Origin: a phage
Strand: one strand, 5' to 3'
DNA: 64,000 nucleotides
Assembly (NCBI GenBank): GCA_022897995.1
Contig: GCA_022897995.1_4763.1
Part shown: piece after piece, positions 44,551-60,429 of the stretch
Layout: every line of letters begins with the position of its first letter
Numbering within the stretch: the stretch's first letter is position 1
Made by a program: the position numbers and the translations under genes
Notes under the pieces: model-generated
What the model was told of the DNA's origin: nothing
The model's input: only the letters and a program-made list of their open reading frames with translations
Databases searched by the model: none

Positions 44551-44811
44551 ATGTCCAATCAGCATGAACAAATGATTAATGTCCTGAAAGTACGTCTGTT
44601 TGACACTCAAGAAAAGGCCGCATTCTTAGAAGGCCAACTGAAAGATCGTGAGCGTGTATTAATGGAACTGGTACGCATTCTTGGTATTCAGCCAGACGAA
44701 AACGGCACTGTTTCCCTTGATGCTATTGTCGAAGAAGTAAAAGCACTTCTCCCTAAAGACGAAGCAGCGGAAGACGCTAAAGAGGAAGTAGAACTGATCA
44801 CGGAGGCTTGA
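44551..44811 (+). CDS. 57A: tail fiber assembly chaperone gp57A
   Basis: 86 aa coiled-coil; AGGAG RBS then ATG 44551 (ORF track starts GTG 44545); T4 position between 1 and 57B. Confidence 0.55.
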   Translation: MSNQHEQMINVLKVRLFDTQEKAAFLEGQLKDRERVLMELVRILGIQPDENGTVSLDAIVEEVKALLPKDEAAEDAKEEVELITEA

Positions 44812-44813
44812 TT

Positions 44814-45278
44814 ATGACCCCGTTTCGAGAATCCGTTAAAGGTACATATGCGGCGGTTAAATTCACTGAGGATACACTAGACCGCATTGAAAAATTGCAG
44901 GAGTTCTACGATCTGCCTAATGCCGTTCCTCGTGATAAACTGCATAGCACTATCTTATATTCTCGTGTTTATGTTCCGTTTATCCCAGAAGAAGGGGAGA
45001 AGTTCTTAGGCTCTCTATGCCATCTGAAAGTGTTTGAAACTCAATCCGGTACTAATGCGCTTGTGTTGGCATTTGAAAGCGACTACATGCAATTCAGACA
45101 CGATATCGGCACTGCTTTAGGTGCGACGTGGGATTATCCTGAATATGTACCGCATATCACGCTTTCTTATGATGTTGGTGCGCGTAAATTTGGCACTGAC
45201 CTAGAGTTCGATTTAGAGATTGTCCGATCTCATGAGTATGTCGAAGATCTAGACCTGGAGTGGACGACCAAACTGTAA
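44814..45278 (+). CDS. 57B: 2H phosphoesterase, 57B/Acb1-like (anti-CBASS nuclease candidate)
   Basis: 154 aa from ATG 44814 (GGAGG RBS); two H-x-T/S-x motifs (HSTILYS and HITLSY); T4 57B position. Confidence 0.6.
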   Translation: MTPFRESVKGTYAAVKFTEDTLDRIEKLQEFYDLPNAVPRDKLHSTILYSRVYVPFIPEEGEKFLGSLCHLKVFETQSGTNALVLAFESDYMQFRHDIGTALGATWDYPEYVPHITLSYDVGARKFGTDLEFDLEIVRSHEYVEDLDLEWTTKL

Positions 45279-51160: not shown

Positions 51161-51550
51161 ATGTTTAAATTATCTCAAAGAAGCAAAGATCGGCTTGTTG
51201 GTGTACATCCAGACCTGGTAAAAGTCGTTCATCGTGCATTAGAACTGACTCCGGTCGATTTTGGTATTACGGAAGGTGTGCGTAGTCTCGCAACGCAAAA
51301 GAAATATGTTGCGGAAGGTAAATCTAAGACTATGAAATCTCGTCATCTTCATGGTTTCGCGGTTGACGTTGTAGCGTATCCGAAAGATAAGGATACATGG
51401 AACATGAAATATTACCGCATGATCGCTGATGCATTTAAACAAGCTGGTCGAGAATTGGGTGTTCCTGTTGAATGGGGCGGGGATTGGACCAGTTTCAAAG
51501 ATGGTCCTCATCTACAATTGCCTCACAGCAAATACCCAGATCCACAATAA
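51161..51550 (+). CDS. peptidase M15 family peptidoglycan hydrolase (L-alanyl-D-glutamate peptidase-like, putative endolysin)
   Basis: 129 aa; zinc-ligand motifs SRHLHGFAVDV and DGPHLQL; N-terminal GVHPDLVKVVHRA..VDFGITEGVRS resembles T5-type endolysins; GGGGG RBS. Confidence 0.65.
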   Translation: MFKLSQRSKDRLVGVHPDLVKVVHRALELTPVDFGITEGVRSLATQKKYVAEGKSKTMKSRHLHGFAVDVVAYPKDKDTWNMKYYRMIADAFKQAGRELGVPVEWGGDWTSFKDGPHLQLPHSKYPDPQ

Positions 51551-51611
51551 TTATTAACCATCAACGGGGAGACAATCTAAGGATCTCTCCCCGTTCACTG
51601 GAGACTTGACA

Positions 51612-52097
51612 ATGAATATTGATGTAAAATTAGAAAGTAAAGATTTGATTTATGCTGCGTGTGTTTCTGCCGTAGATGGCATCATAGAACGCCGTAAGCG
51701 ACGCAATTTTGCTGATGACCTAGATTCCATCGTCTCAATCAATTTAGGCCGTCAGACAGGGCATACAGACGCTACAATCAAGTTATATGACCATTATACG
51801 CGAAAAGGCTATAGTGTCTTTATCGTCTCAACGACGCGGGAACATGTCAAAACGATCCGAGATCGCGGTCGCGGTGAAAATGTAAATATTTCAAATGTAG
51901 ATTGCACGTCGATCCGAACTTTCCTGAATCCGATCACATGGCGAGGTCGTAGTCTTGACAGAACAATTTTTATCCTAGATACTACCATGCGCGGATTTAC
52001 TGACAGCGTATTGCAGTTTTTAGAGTTAAATCGACGTAGTGTTGGGGTGGGTAATGTAGAAGACCAACCTATTTTCATTGGCTTAGGTATCAACTAA
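51612..52097 (+). CDS. hypothetical protein (161 aa)
   Basis: GGAGA RBS then ATG 51612 (ORF track starts TTG 51606). Confidence 0.5.
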   Translation: MNIDVKLESKDLIYAACVSAVDGIIERRKRRNFADDLDSIVSINLGRQTGHTDATIKLYDHYTRKGYSVFIVSTTREHVKTIRDRGRGENVNISNVDCTSIRTFLNPITWRGRSLDRTIFILDTTMRGFTDSVLQFLELNRRSVGVGNVEDQPIFIGLGIN

Positions 52098-52232
52098 TGA
52101 AAAATAAAGATAGCGTAGCTCGTCGATTTCGTGCTACAATTAAAAAGAATCGTAAAGTCCAACCTGATAAACTCTATGGTGTTTTGGTTGGAAAAGTTAA
52201 TGACGAACGTCCTGATCTATAAGAGGTGAATT

Positions 52233-52649
52233 ATGGAATTTAAAGCAATTCAAATCATGAAAGGTGAGCATAAAGGTACTATTATCGGTGGATATTTCGC
52301 CCCTATGATTCTGGTATCCGAACCTAAAGCACTGATCGGCGCTAAAGTAATTGTTAGTAAAACTTTCGCAGAAGACCATGTGATCACCGCAGAAGACGTC
52401 GATTCGCTGGCACTGCACACAACTAGCTTCCGTCCTGTTATTGTAGATAATGGTGCTCCTGTTGTCGAGGGAGGCCAGCATTTGAATGTTAACGTATTGT
52501 TACGAGAAATGTTGCTGGACGCGGTTGAACATCCTGAGAAGTACCCGCAGCTTACAATTCGCGTTTCTGGTTACGCAGTGCGCTTCAATAGTCTGACTCC
52601 AGACCAGCAGCGTGACGTTATCGCGCGTACCTTTACCGAATCTCTCTAA
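52233..52649 (+). CDS. grcA: autonomous glycyl radical cofactor (GrcA/YfiD-like; T4 Y06I-like)
   Basis: 138 aa; C-terminal glycyl-radical signature ..[33 protein letters not shown]; AGAGGTG RBS. Confidence 0.75.
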
Positions 52650-52659
52650 TTTTTCATCA

Positions 52660-52688
52660 AGCCAATCCGAAAAGGGTTGGCTTTTTCG
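52660..52688 (+). terminator. intrinsic terminator
   Basis: AGCCAATCC-GAAAA-GGGTTGGCT hairpin plus T5. Confidence 0.65.
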
Positions 52689-52735
52689 TTTTATGATGAT
52701 ATGATGCAATCTCTTAATCAACTGAGGGTTTAATT

Positions 52736-53434
52736 ATGCATACAATGGTTAAAATGGTCTTCGGATCTCACTTATACGGCCTTGATACTGAAAATTCCGA
52801 TAAAGATTATCGAGGTATCTTTGTTCCGACTGCGAAAGAAATTATTTTAGGATCGATGAAAGAACACTATGACCAAAGCACTAGCGGTCAAGGTATCAAG
52901 AACACCAAAGACGATATTGATGTTAATATGTTCAGTCTAAAAAGGTTTATCAATCTGGCATGTAAAGGTGATATTGGCGCTATTGACATGGTGCACGCGC
53001 CTAGTAACATGTTGATTGAATCCTCCAGAGAATGGGAATACATCCGAACACATCGCGATAAATTCTATCATGTTGGTATGTGGGGTTGTTCTGGCTATCT
53101 CAAAAAGCAGGTAGCCAAATCTGAAAAGTATTTCAGTAACTGGAAAGATCTTTCTCATGCTCTGCGTGTTGGTTATCAGCTACTTGAAATCTATCAGACA
53201 GGTGATCTACAATTCCCGCTCGCGCGACGTTCTTCTATTTTAGCGTGTAAGTTAGGAGAAAGAACCTTTGATAATGTGCGGGAAGAATTGAAAGATCTCT
53301 ACGAGCGTGTTAAACTCGCGCGTGAAGAGGCAAAGAAAAACGGTATGCCGGAAGAACCAGATGTTGACTTTTGGAAAGATTTATTAGAATATATTCATCT
53401 GACCGTTGTTCTGGAACACTATACCCGTGGTTAG
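52736..53434 (+). CDS. predicted nucleotidyltransferase (Pol-beta superfamily)
   Basis: 232 aa; N-terminal NTase signature FGSHLYGLDTENSDKDYRG; GAGGG RBS. Confidence 0.55.
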   Translation: MHTMVKMVFGSHLYGLDTENSDKDYRGIFVPTAKEIILGSMKEHYDQSTSGQGIKNTKDDIDVNMFSLKRFINLACKGDIGAIDMVHAPSNMLIESSREWEYIRTHRDKFYHVGMWGCSGYLKKQVAKSEKYFSNWKDLSHALRVGYQLLEIYQTGDLQFPLARRSSILACKLGERTFDNVREELKDLYERVKLAREEAKKNGMPEEPDVDFWKDLLEYIHLTVVLEHYTRG

Positions 53435-53455
53435 TTAATATAGGAGATTAAGAAA

Positions 53456-53650
53456 ATGCAAGTTTATACCAATAGCAATAAAGGCAATGATATCACACCG
53501 GGAAAGATGTATGATTTTACCCCGGCACGAGACGACGAACATCCACCGACTATCGGGTATATTGAAGATGATGCGGGGTTTCGTATTACGATCCTTCTTG
53601 ATGGTGGATGTTCTCATCTTCGCGGTGATCGTTGGGAGTTAGTACCATGA
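53456..53650 (+). CDS. small protein, CSHL-motif paralog 1 (64 aa)
   Basis: AGGAG RBS; motif GYIEDDAGFRITILLDGGCSHLRGDRWELV shared with the next two ORFs. Confidence 0.5.
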   Translation: MQVYTNSNKGNDITPGKMYDFTPARDDEHPPTIGYIEDDAGFRITILLDGGCSHLRGDRWELVP

Positions 53651-58284: not shown

Positions 58285-60429
58285 ATGCCAGAAGTAAAAG
58301 AAACTAGCATTAACACAACCATTTGGCTTCCTCATACTTTCGCGTGTTCAATTACTGCCGAATCGGAAGACCCATCTAAGACGAGGAAGGGTTATCATTG
58401 GAAAAAGGATGGTAAATTGGTCACTATGACCGATGCTCCGTCTTTTCCATTGAAGACAGTAAAGGAAGAGGACAAAACAGGCTGGTCTGTTAATGTTCGT
58501 GGGTATGCTCAAGATGACAATGAGTTTACTGGTGATTCTGTTGATATCGGTACGGAAAATTTCACCTTTGAATTGTTTGATAATCCATATGTAGAACATG
58601 TATACCCGCCACGGTCATTTATTGTTGGTGATGAAATAAAGGCAAAGATTGTTTTTCGTAGTCATATCCAGAATAATATTTCTGTAGACCTTTATTACAA
58701 CGATGGTTTGGTTGATTCCATTGATGGTGATCTAGGTTTAGACCATCGTGAATTTAAAATTGCAAAATTTGCGTGGCCTGAATTTTCCGGCACATATCGA
58801 ATGGAATTGAGCGATGAACATGATGATGTAAAATTTGTATATCCTTTCTTTGCTAGTATTGTCGAAAGTAAGGAAGTGTTTAACGTTCAAAAATACGCAC
58901 CTGCTTATTTTACCGTAGAAGATGATGCGCCGAATCAGGCCGAATATACTATTGTCCGCTACCGATTAGAGCGTGGTGATGGTACTTTGGTATATGAATC
59001 TAAAGATAAGACCTTGTATGTAACAAAACATGCTCAAGAGTCTGACGCCGGAGAATATGTTGCTTTTGTGCGTGCATATAAAGTTGTTAATGGTCCTGGG
59101 TCTGGTGAGCAATTCATCGATGGCGATAAACATCGCTTTACGGTAAATGTTAAGGAAAATGAGTTTTTCAGCCATGATTTTAGTGCTGTTGATTTTCGTT
59201 ATCCTTCTGGATCTACTGTAAACCTTGATATGCCAGTGATGCAAGCCGATAGCTCGTGGAACCGCCATTACGGTATGCTTAGTAACAACGTTTACTTTAC
59301 GTGGATGCTTGGCGGTAAGAAACTTCAAAGTAAAAAATATGGTGATGAAGGATACGACCGAATCACCCTATCTGGATTGCAATATGATAACAGCGTTGCG
59401 CTTCAATTGTTGGTTGCTCCTGCCAATCCAGCGGGTGAGCAGGTGATTCCTAACGGTCGTCCACTGTTTTATGACCGTCGTATGCTTGAGATTTATGATA
59501 AAGAGTATGATTATCGTAATATTGAAGTGGGTGAACCGATTGTTCTCAAGATCGTAGATCCTGAACCGCCAGCTAGTGATGATCCTGAACAAACACGAAC
59601 TTTGGTTATCACCAAAAACGACGTTAAAGTAACGGAACTACCGCTAGGCACTAAGGAATATAAGATCACTGACTCCGCTGACCGAGACCATAACGGAATC
59701 TGGGCGCATGAGTATCGTGATAGTCCGAGTAAAGATCCATTTAGTGCACATACCGATTTTGATATTGCTGGTCGCGCAACTTATCATGTTGAAGTTGTGC
59801 CAAATATGGAATTTGATGGTCCTCATCCGGTACAGGTGACGGAAGGGGATACGTTGACTATTGAAGCAACCATGCTTAAACCGCCAGCCTCATATGTTCC
59901 GACTTATGAGTTTAGCAAGAGTGGAGTTAAATTGCCAATTGCTGATGCAAGGACGCCGATTTATCGTAAGGCAAATGTTACCTTAGATGATGCTGGTGTT
60001 TATCGATTTGTTGCATTTGCTGATAAAAACAACAACGAAACTCTAGACCCAGGTGAGATCATCGGCTATACAAAATATGTTCAAGTTGTGGTTAATAAAC
60101 GTCCTGTTCGACCAGATGAACCTAAACCGGAAGTTAAAATTGTTACTCTGTTTAATGATTTTAGTAAAGGCCGATTTAGTCCGTGTCCGTATTGGGTAAT
60201 TGATGAACTTGTCGAACTGATGGAAGATCCGCATGGCTGGATGGGTAAACTTGAAGATGCTGTCTACTATGACTGGCAGATCACTATCTTTAATGAGTTC
60301 TTAAAAGGTAAAGATCTGTATCTTCAAGACTCCTGTAATGGTTATTGGGCTATTGTTCGTCAGAAAGACATGACAATCGAAACTGGTTACGGTCGATTTA
60401 AACACTATCACACAAATGGATTAGAGTAA
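58285..60429 (+). CDS. large Ig-like domain protein with Hoc-like C-terminus (candidate virion surface/decoration protein)
   Basis: 714 aa; AAGGGGG RBS; Ig-like signature DDAGVYRFVAF; C-terminal ..CPYWVIDEL..DSCNGYW.. weakly resembles the Hoc capsid-binding domain. Confidence 0.55.
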   Translation: MPEVKETSINTTIWLPHTFACSITAESEDPSKTRKGYHWKKDGKLVTMTDAPSFPLKTVKEEDKTGWSVNVRGYAQDDNEFTGDSVDIGTENFTFELFDNPYVEHVYPPRSFIVGDEIKAKIVFRSHIQNNISVDLYYNDGLVDSIDGDLGLDHREFKIAKFAWPEFSGTYRMELSDEHDDVKFVYPFFASIVESKEVFNVQKYAPAYFTVEDDAPNQAEYTIVRYRLERGDGTLVYESKDKTLYVTKHAQESDAGEYVAFVRAYKVVNGPGSGEQFIDGDKHRFTVNVKENEFFSHDFSAVDFRYPSGSTVNLDMPVMQADSSWNRHYGMLSNNVYFTWMLGGKKLQSKKYGDEGYDRITLSGLQYDNSVALQLLVAPANPAGEQVIPNGRPLFYDRRMLEIYDKEYDYRNIEVGEPIVLKIVDPEPPASDDPEQTRTLVITKNDVKVTELPLGTKEYKITDSADRDHNGIWAHEYRDSPSKDPFSAHTDFDIAGRATYHVEVVPNMEFDGPHPVQVTEGDTLTIEATMLKPPASYVPTYEFSKSGVKLPIADARTPIYRKANVTLDDAGVYRFVAFADKNNNETLDPGEIIGYTKYVQVVVNKRPVRPDEPKPEVKIVTLFNDFSKGRFSPCPYWVIDELVELMEDPHGWMGKLEDAVYYDWQITIFNEFLKGKDLYLQDSCNGYWAIVRQKDMTIETGYGRFKHYHTNGLE

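Follow-up and report, generated by a model that had tools for sequence, protein, structure and literature searches.

The window analysed here, a stretch of phage DNA of 64,000 nucleotides, comes from a Krischvirus, an RB49-like, T4-like coliphage. The 3 kb around the gene under study are 96-97% identical to 59 Krischvirus records, JSE among them, with 97% identity to RB49, Phi1 and GEC-3S; these phages are T4-like Straboviridae that infect E. coli and Shigella. At 52233-52649 the plus strand carries an intact open reading frame (ORF) of 138 codons plus stop, running from ATG to TAA (ORF list, sequence), which coincides with the annotated RB49 gene vs.6 (RB49p099) and equals it in length; the two proteins are 99% identical. 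A strong Shine-Dalgarno sequence precedes the gene. An intrinsic terminator begins 10 nt past the stop codon, and the GEC-3S annotation has a terminator at the equivalent place. The features of the locus, with the evidence for each in brackets, are as follows.

51612-52097, plus strand: vs.8 homolog, co-oriented with and upstream of vs.6 (RB49 annotation; phrog_1488)
52097-52222, plus strand: 41-aa ORF between vs.8 and vs.6, homolog of RB49p100 (ORF list, RB49, phrog_13848)
52221-52229, plus strand: Shine-Dalgarno sequence AAGAGGTGA, 3 nt 5' of the vs.6 ATG (direct sequence reading)
52233-52649, plus strand: CDS of the vs.6 ortholog, a GrcA/YfiD-like autonomous glycyl radical cofactor (ORF list, Pfam PF01228, PDB 6owr, phrog_1209, RB49 vs.6)
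52233-52460, plus strand: N-terminal half of Vs.6, residues 1-76 (alignments, AF2 model)
52284-52337, plus strand: lineage-specific insertion, about residues 18-35 (alignments)
52461-52646, plus strand: glycyl radical domain, residues 77-138, equivalent to PflB 698-759 and GrcA 66-127 (pairwise alignments)
52560-52580, plus strand: RVSGYAV radical loop (sequence; alignments)
52659-52693, plus strand: intrinsic terminator with a 10-bp stem, AAGCCAATCC/GGGTTGGCTT, followed by a T-rich tail (terminator scan)
about 52400-52712, no strand assigned: divergent-allele tract with 48-84% nucleotide identity (sliding-window identity against FL04 and pEJ01; codon comparison; survey of the 59 records)

Two minus-strand ORFs, at 52197-52481 and 52500-52721, overlap the conserved gene without homology support and were set aside as spurious.

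In RB49 the genes follow one another as vs.8, the 41-aa ORF, vs.6, nrdC.11, regB, vs.1, vs, tk.4 and tk, and Pfam searches of the window recovered RegB, Tk.4 (a macro-domain protein) and Tk. According to the RB49 and T4 annotations, vs.6 of the window keeps its T4-type position in the early region, with vs.8 upstream and regB, vs and tk downstream. The T4 order is vs.8-vs.7-vs.6 ... regB-vs-tk, whereas in the window the unrelated 41-aa ORF takes the place of vs.7. The stop codon of the vs.8 homolog, for which no Pfam match was obtained, overlaps the start of this short ORF.

Several neighbouring features were recorded in passing. The gene nrdC.11 (52736-53434, plus strand), downstream of vs.6, encodes an RlaP-type nucleotidyltransferase (PF10127, RNA repair pathway DNA polymerase beta family), and is preceded by a promoter-like element, TTGGCT-17-TATGAT (52677-52705), overlapping with the terminator of vs.6. 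Upstream of vs.8, in the region of T4 gene e, a plus-strand gene at 51161-51550 encodes an endolysin of the Peptidase_M15_4 family, an L-alanyl-D-glutamate peptidase type as in T5 and not a lysozyme of the T4 gp e type. The gap between this gene and vs.8 (~51550-51612) contains a GC-rich hairpin, GGGGAGA...TCTCTCCCC (~51566-51593), with no T tract after it. At 44808-45278 (plus strand), adjoining a dNMP kinase gene, lies a homolog of the anti-CBASS phosphodiesterase Acb1 (PF23474, E=1.5e-51). Downstream of tk, Pfam finds no domain in a plus-strand ORF of 714 aa (58285-60429), whose C-terminus matches Hoc-like head decoration proteins only weakly (phrog_1149, E=2.4e-9). Six of the 59 Krischvirus records have this ORF, at no more than 90% identity; RB49 lacks it, and it looks like an accessory gene in a hyperplastic region.

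A stand-alone glycyl radical domain

The sole Pfam domain of the 138-aa protein is Gly_radical (PF01228; residues 78-119; E=1.5e-16, 61.3 bits against a cutoff of 22.2), and there is no catalytic barrel. Its best match in the PDB is E. coli GrcA (6owr, E=5.3e-33), followed by the C-terminus of PflB (1h16, 1cm5; E ~5e-27). The phage profile phrog_1209 (E=1.6e-50) is matched over its full length, with protein residues 3-138 aligned to profile positions 1-121 of 121. Among NCBIfam models the best is TIGR04365, the GrcA family (E=3.7e-39), where the alignment starts at residue 37. The score of 133.9 bits lies under the equivalog cutoff of that model (170 bits), a shortfall that carries little weight, since the experimentally validated Vs.6 of T4 also falls under it, with 151.1 bits. 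E. coli GrcA scores 233.9 bits and homologs from T5-like and jumbo phages 118-136 bits; these controls indicate that the cutoff divides bacterial from phage versions and says nothing on function.

Pyruvate formate-lyase (PFL) is an enzyme of ~760 aa built on a ten-stranded barrel, with Cys418/Cys419 as catalytic residues. The barrel, ~700 residues that include both cysteines, is absent from the window protein, and only the last 62 residues align, so that the label "pyruvate formate-lyase" is strictly wrong; the PFL model TIGR01255, at 88.6 bits against a cutoff of 994, likewise marks this label as overstated. The E. coli protein GrcA, or YfiD (P68066, 6OWR, TIGR04365), has the same architecture: it is small and stands alone, and its C-terminal ~62 residues copy the radical domain of PflB.

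Within the 62-residue radical domain the window protein shares 56 residues with GrcA, 54 with T4 Vs.6 (Y06I; NP_049730, named "autonomous glycyl radical cofactor GrcA" in RefSeq) and 50 with PflB 698-759, the whole radical loop being among the identical positions. Over the full length, identity to GrcA is 63%, with an identical C-terminal ending and an N-terminal half that can be aligned only loosely. Identity to T4 Vs.6 is 68%, and here the common features extend to the motifs KA.QI..G.HKGTI and (I/V)IVSKTF.ED as well as the identical loop. T4 Vs.6 has 120 aa; the window protein is longer because of an insertion of ~17 residues (18-35) and a few extra residues at ~55-65. The helix before the radical loop also differs, reading REMLLDAVE in the window, PflB-like at M93 and L95, and HETLEDAVK in T4.

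The radical glycine of the window protein is G113 (codon 52569-52571), which corresponds to GrcA G102 and PflB G734 (PMC12338860). It is invariant in 25 diverse phage and bacterial homologs and again in 83 aligned homologs, across which the entire RVSGYAV loop is also invariant. Loss of this glycine in an ortholog, the outcome that would have told most directly against a radical cofactor, was not found among them.

At the DNA level the relationship to the host gene is distant. Over the radical domain the window and E. coli grcA agree at 90% of protein positions and 73% of nucleotides, with a third-position identity of 0.44, and their codons differ by 34 synonymous and 6 non-synonymous changes; BLASTN finds 75.7% identity over 177 nt. 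Comparisons with RB49, kaaroe and GEC-3S gave 10-13 synonymous and 1-2 non-synonymous codon differences. This synonymous excess points to long-term, strong purifying selection on an old phage gene. The idea that host grcA was captured recently, or that pflB took part in gene conversion, was rejected on the DNA identity of 73-76% to grcA and the third-position value of 0.44. With DNA identity to grcA this low, the PflB-like residues M93 and L95, together with E99 in place of a lysine in GrcA, are best taken as point similarities and not as a transferred tract.

These analyses bear out the original prediction, which had called the gene a phage-encoded GrcA/YfiD-like autonomous glycyl radical cofactor from its C-terminus and had quoted a C-terminal translation that matches the ORF exactly. 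The family assignment is supported by Pfam, 6owr, phrog_1209 and synteny with T4 vs.6. The glycyl-radical signature of PFL and GrcA is confirmed by the exact RVSGYAV and by the counts of 56/62 to GrcA and 50/62 to PflB. The proposed likeness to T4 Y06I can be put more precisely, as syntenic orthology.

The N-terminal half

Residues 1-76 are far less conserved in the alignments than the radical domain. They keep the phage-protein motif KAIQI..GEHKGTI, and fainter sharing with GrcA is seen at IQI and IVAKAGFAEDEV. The ~17-residue insertion marks a subgroup of proteins of 134-143 aa (P0001-P0023; in the alignments, P0004-P0023) and is absent from the 120-aa T4-type Vs.6 (T4, P0025, P0038, P0043).

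An AF2 model of the window protein, built on 83 sequences, reached a mean pLDDT of 78 and a pTM of 0.45. From residue 91 on, ten-residue blocks have mean pLDDT values of 79-93, with ~90 in the C-terminal ~40 residues; residues 71-90, which include the first part of the radical domain, have values of 58-64. In the N-terminal half, beta strands are predicted at residues 4-8, 17-20, 38-41 and 66-69, at a pLDDT of 57-84. Foldseek placed the model on 6owr (TMt 0.74), with further matches to 2pfl and 1cm5, so that it superposes on YfiD and on the C-terminus of PFL. Against the PDB, nothing significant turned up for the N-terminal half; hits other than those to the radical domain were low-probability ones of KOW/ribosomal L14e-like type.

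In E. coli YfiD, residues 1-60 are disordered by NMR (PMC8683613), and for this reason we make no claim that the N-terminal half of the window protein is folded. By analogy with these YfiD residues, it probably mediates recognition of damaged PflB. Given its weak similarity to YfiD and the ~17-residue insertion, the way in which the target is recognised could differ.

A homing endonuclease site and a second radical-domain allele

The divergent tract, which in the comparison with FL04 and pEJ01 extends from about 52400 to about 52702, covers vs.6 codons ~62-138 and the terminator. Its flanks, 51539-52400 and 52712-53500, are 93-100% identical to FL04 and pEJ01. At the end of the tract (~52702-52712), between vs.6 and nrdC.11, these two phages carry an insert with a ~0.6 kb gene for a NUMOD4 + HNH_3 endonuclease (ORFs at L005 1963-2556 and L009 1966-2559), and the window has the endonuclease-free allele. 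A further homing endonuclease gene of FL04 (HNH_3 + AP2; L009 241-816) lies between the endolysin gene and vs.8 and is absent from the window.

Among the 59 Krischvirus records, ~45 have the contiguous allele of the window at no less than 92% identity. An alternative arrangement occurs in 13: JSE, Whisky, 011D4, pEJ01, AV108, MIZ4, MIZ5, LF73P4, FL20, G37-3, JK32, FL04 and phiS. Eleven of these were recognised by an endonuclease annotated under the match or by a split match spanning the insertion, and FL04 and phiS were added to them. Where such records align across the tract, the 3' half of vs.6 has 77-84% identity to the window; for FL04, G37-3, JK32, phiS and 011D4 the divergence exceeds what megablast can align, and the nrdC.11 end alone matches. 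KFS-EC and FL15 are intermediate, with 86% identity and no insertion. At least two different endonuclease insertions occupy the site between vs.6 and nrdC.11, one of the JSE type and one of the pEJ01/FL04 type. The radical glycine and the other invariant residues are kept in both vs.6 alleles. Co-conversion by a freestanding homing endonuclease would produce this allele pattern, as would divergence of the target site.

A more elaborate reading, which we think unlikely, would treat vs.6 as two separately evolving modules: a phage-specific, possibly folded N-terminal targeting module, which in this lineage bears the ~17-residue insertion, and a radical cassette shuttled among Krischviruses by homing endonucleases. 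Alternative cassettes could then suit different host formate-lyases (PflB or TdcE), or undamaged enzyme. If this were true, vs.6 would be a variable tool of host metabolism, beyond a simple copy of GrcA.

A putative spare part for pyruvate formate-lyase

The function of this family is known from two proteins. YfiD and T4 Y06I are described as the only two validated PFL spare parts, both activated by PFL-AE (PMC8683613, citing Wagner et al. 2001; PMC13450708; PMC12338860). Once activated, either protein is reported to form a complex with oxygen-cleaved PFL and to restore its activity, according to PMC8683613, which cites Wagner et al. 2001, and the original prediction had named the restoring effect of Y06I in agreement with that account. 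With its C-terminal half YfiD stands in for the damaged radical domain of PFL; its disordered N-terminal half is needed for binding of cleaved PFL and for efficient activation, not for catalysis (PMC8683613, PMC13450708). In vivo, GrcA rescues the PflB variant G734A (PMC12338860).

Taken together, synteny, profile matches and alignments make it very probable that the window gene is the Krischvirus ortholog of T4 Vs.6 (Y06I), a phage autonomous glycyl radical cofactor of the GrcA/YfiD type. We attribute the same spare-part mechanism to it because of its orthology to T4 Vs.6 and its almost identical radical domain. The experiments cover the 120-aa T4 protein and E. coli YfiD only, and it is from these that we infer, by homology, activation by PflA, docking onto cleaved PflB and a fitness benefit for the 138-aa form.

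In the proposed mechanism, vs.6 would be expressed by read-through transcription across the vs.8-orf41-vs.6 block. Host PflA, the radical SAM PFL-activating enzyme, would abstract a hydrogen from G113 in RVSGYAV, a step for which the full conservation of this loop speaks, and the C-terminal 62 residues would stand in for the radical domain of host PflB that oxygen has cut at G734, the radical then passing to PflB Cys419. The likely benefit would be a continued fermentative supply of acetyl-CoA and ATP under fluctuating oxygen, in a host whose synthesis of new PflB has ceased with shut-off. The corresponding ecological rationale, infection under micro-aerobic, gut-like conditions with traces of oxygen, is plausible. 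The searchable literature holds no fitness effect of vs.6 in any phage, and nothing specific on GrcA as an auxiliary metabolic gene.

As in PFL, the radical glycine of the phage's anaerobic ribonucleotide reductase NrdD is oxygen-labile. It is distinctly unlikely, in our judgement, that Vs.6 serves as a spare part for another glycyl radical enzyme, be it host TdcE (2-ketobutyrate formate-lyase) or phage NrdD. The Serratia jumbo phage BF does have a GrcA-like gene between nrdD and nrdG (L007 1-2787), the radical site of RB49 NrdD has the identical pentapeptide RVSGY, and a 2026 review treats spare parts for glycyl radical enzymes other than PFL as a question still open (PMC13450708). However, beyond this pentapeptide no similarity to RB49 NrdD was detected (best BLASTP E=1.1), against a 50/62 match to the PflB C-terminus, and an NrdD spare part as the main function was rejected on this BLASTP result of RVSGY only (E>1). 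Nor does vs.6 of the window adjoin nrdD and nrdG. In RB49 the two genes lie ~17-20 kb downstream of vs.6, outside the window, and Pfam scans of the large plus-strand ORFs found neither of them within it. TdcE as an additional target would amount to the same mechanism as the repair of PFL.

Vs.6 might instead act as a decoy, a mimic of the PflB radical domain that soaks up PflA or occupies PflB and alters host fermentation or formate flux in favour of the phage, with catalysis not being restored. Such a role would be suited by the N-terminal half, which is unlike that of YfiD and in the AF2 model partly ordered. Nevertheless, we consider it highly improbable: all residues of the radical chemistry and the full RVSGYAV loop are under strong purifying selection, and the related T4 protein is reported to restore PFL activity and not to inhibit it (PMC8683613).

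Finally, since the 3' half of the gene is exchanged along with a homing endonuclease gene in ~13 of the 59 related genomes, vs.6 could be taken for a functionless passenger, retained as the flank of the insertion site in a hyperplastic region. This is almost certainly wrong. The ORF is intact in every record examined, and neither allele has lost the radical glycine or the other invariant residues. Synonymous differences outnumber non-synonymous ones by far, and the gene has homologs in phage families as distant as the T5-like, jumbo and Vibrio phages.

Distribution and significance

The reading that best accounts for the locus, a GrcA/YfiD-type cofactor for the repair of PFL, can be set against the distribution of the gene. 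A tblastn search found vs.6 homologs in 1,581 phage records. The T4-like carriers infect Escherichia, Shigella, Klebsiella, Enterobacter, Citrobacter, Yersinia and Aeromonas; other carriers are T5-like phages (Epseptimavirus and Tequintavirus, on Salmonella and E. coli), jumbo phages such as Serratia phage BF, and Vibrio phages. Almost all of the records are from phages of facultative anaerobes that contain PFL (Escherichia, Salmonella, Klebsiella, Shigella, Yersinia, Aeromonas, Vibrio), a host range in keeping with a role linked to PFL.

The gene is already known, having been characterised in T4 (2001) and annotated in many phage genomes, Krischvirus included. Several Krischvirus records (kaaroe, Ec_Makalu_003, PHB13, Skers, W115 and kvi) name it "autonomous glycyl radical cofactor". 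Elsewhere it appears as "hypothetical protein", "pyruvate formate-lyase", "acetyltransferase-related" or "ribonucleotide reductase subunit", and many records could be relabelled uniformly as "autonomous glycyl radical cofactor (Vs.6)".

Beyond correct annotation the finding has little significance: RB49-type coliphages very probably carry, like T4, a PFL repair part. Two modest additions, the longer N-terminal variant and the allele exchange, might interest those who work on spare-part proteins or homing endonucleases, and the N-terminal length variants, together with the two radical-domain alleles, offer natural material on the role of the N-terminal half of a spare part. For the phages themselves, a PFL repair part fits replication in facultative anaerobes at fluctuating oxygen, and fits with the presence of nrdD and nrdG elsewhere in such genomes.
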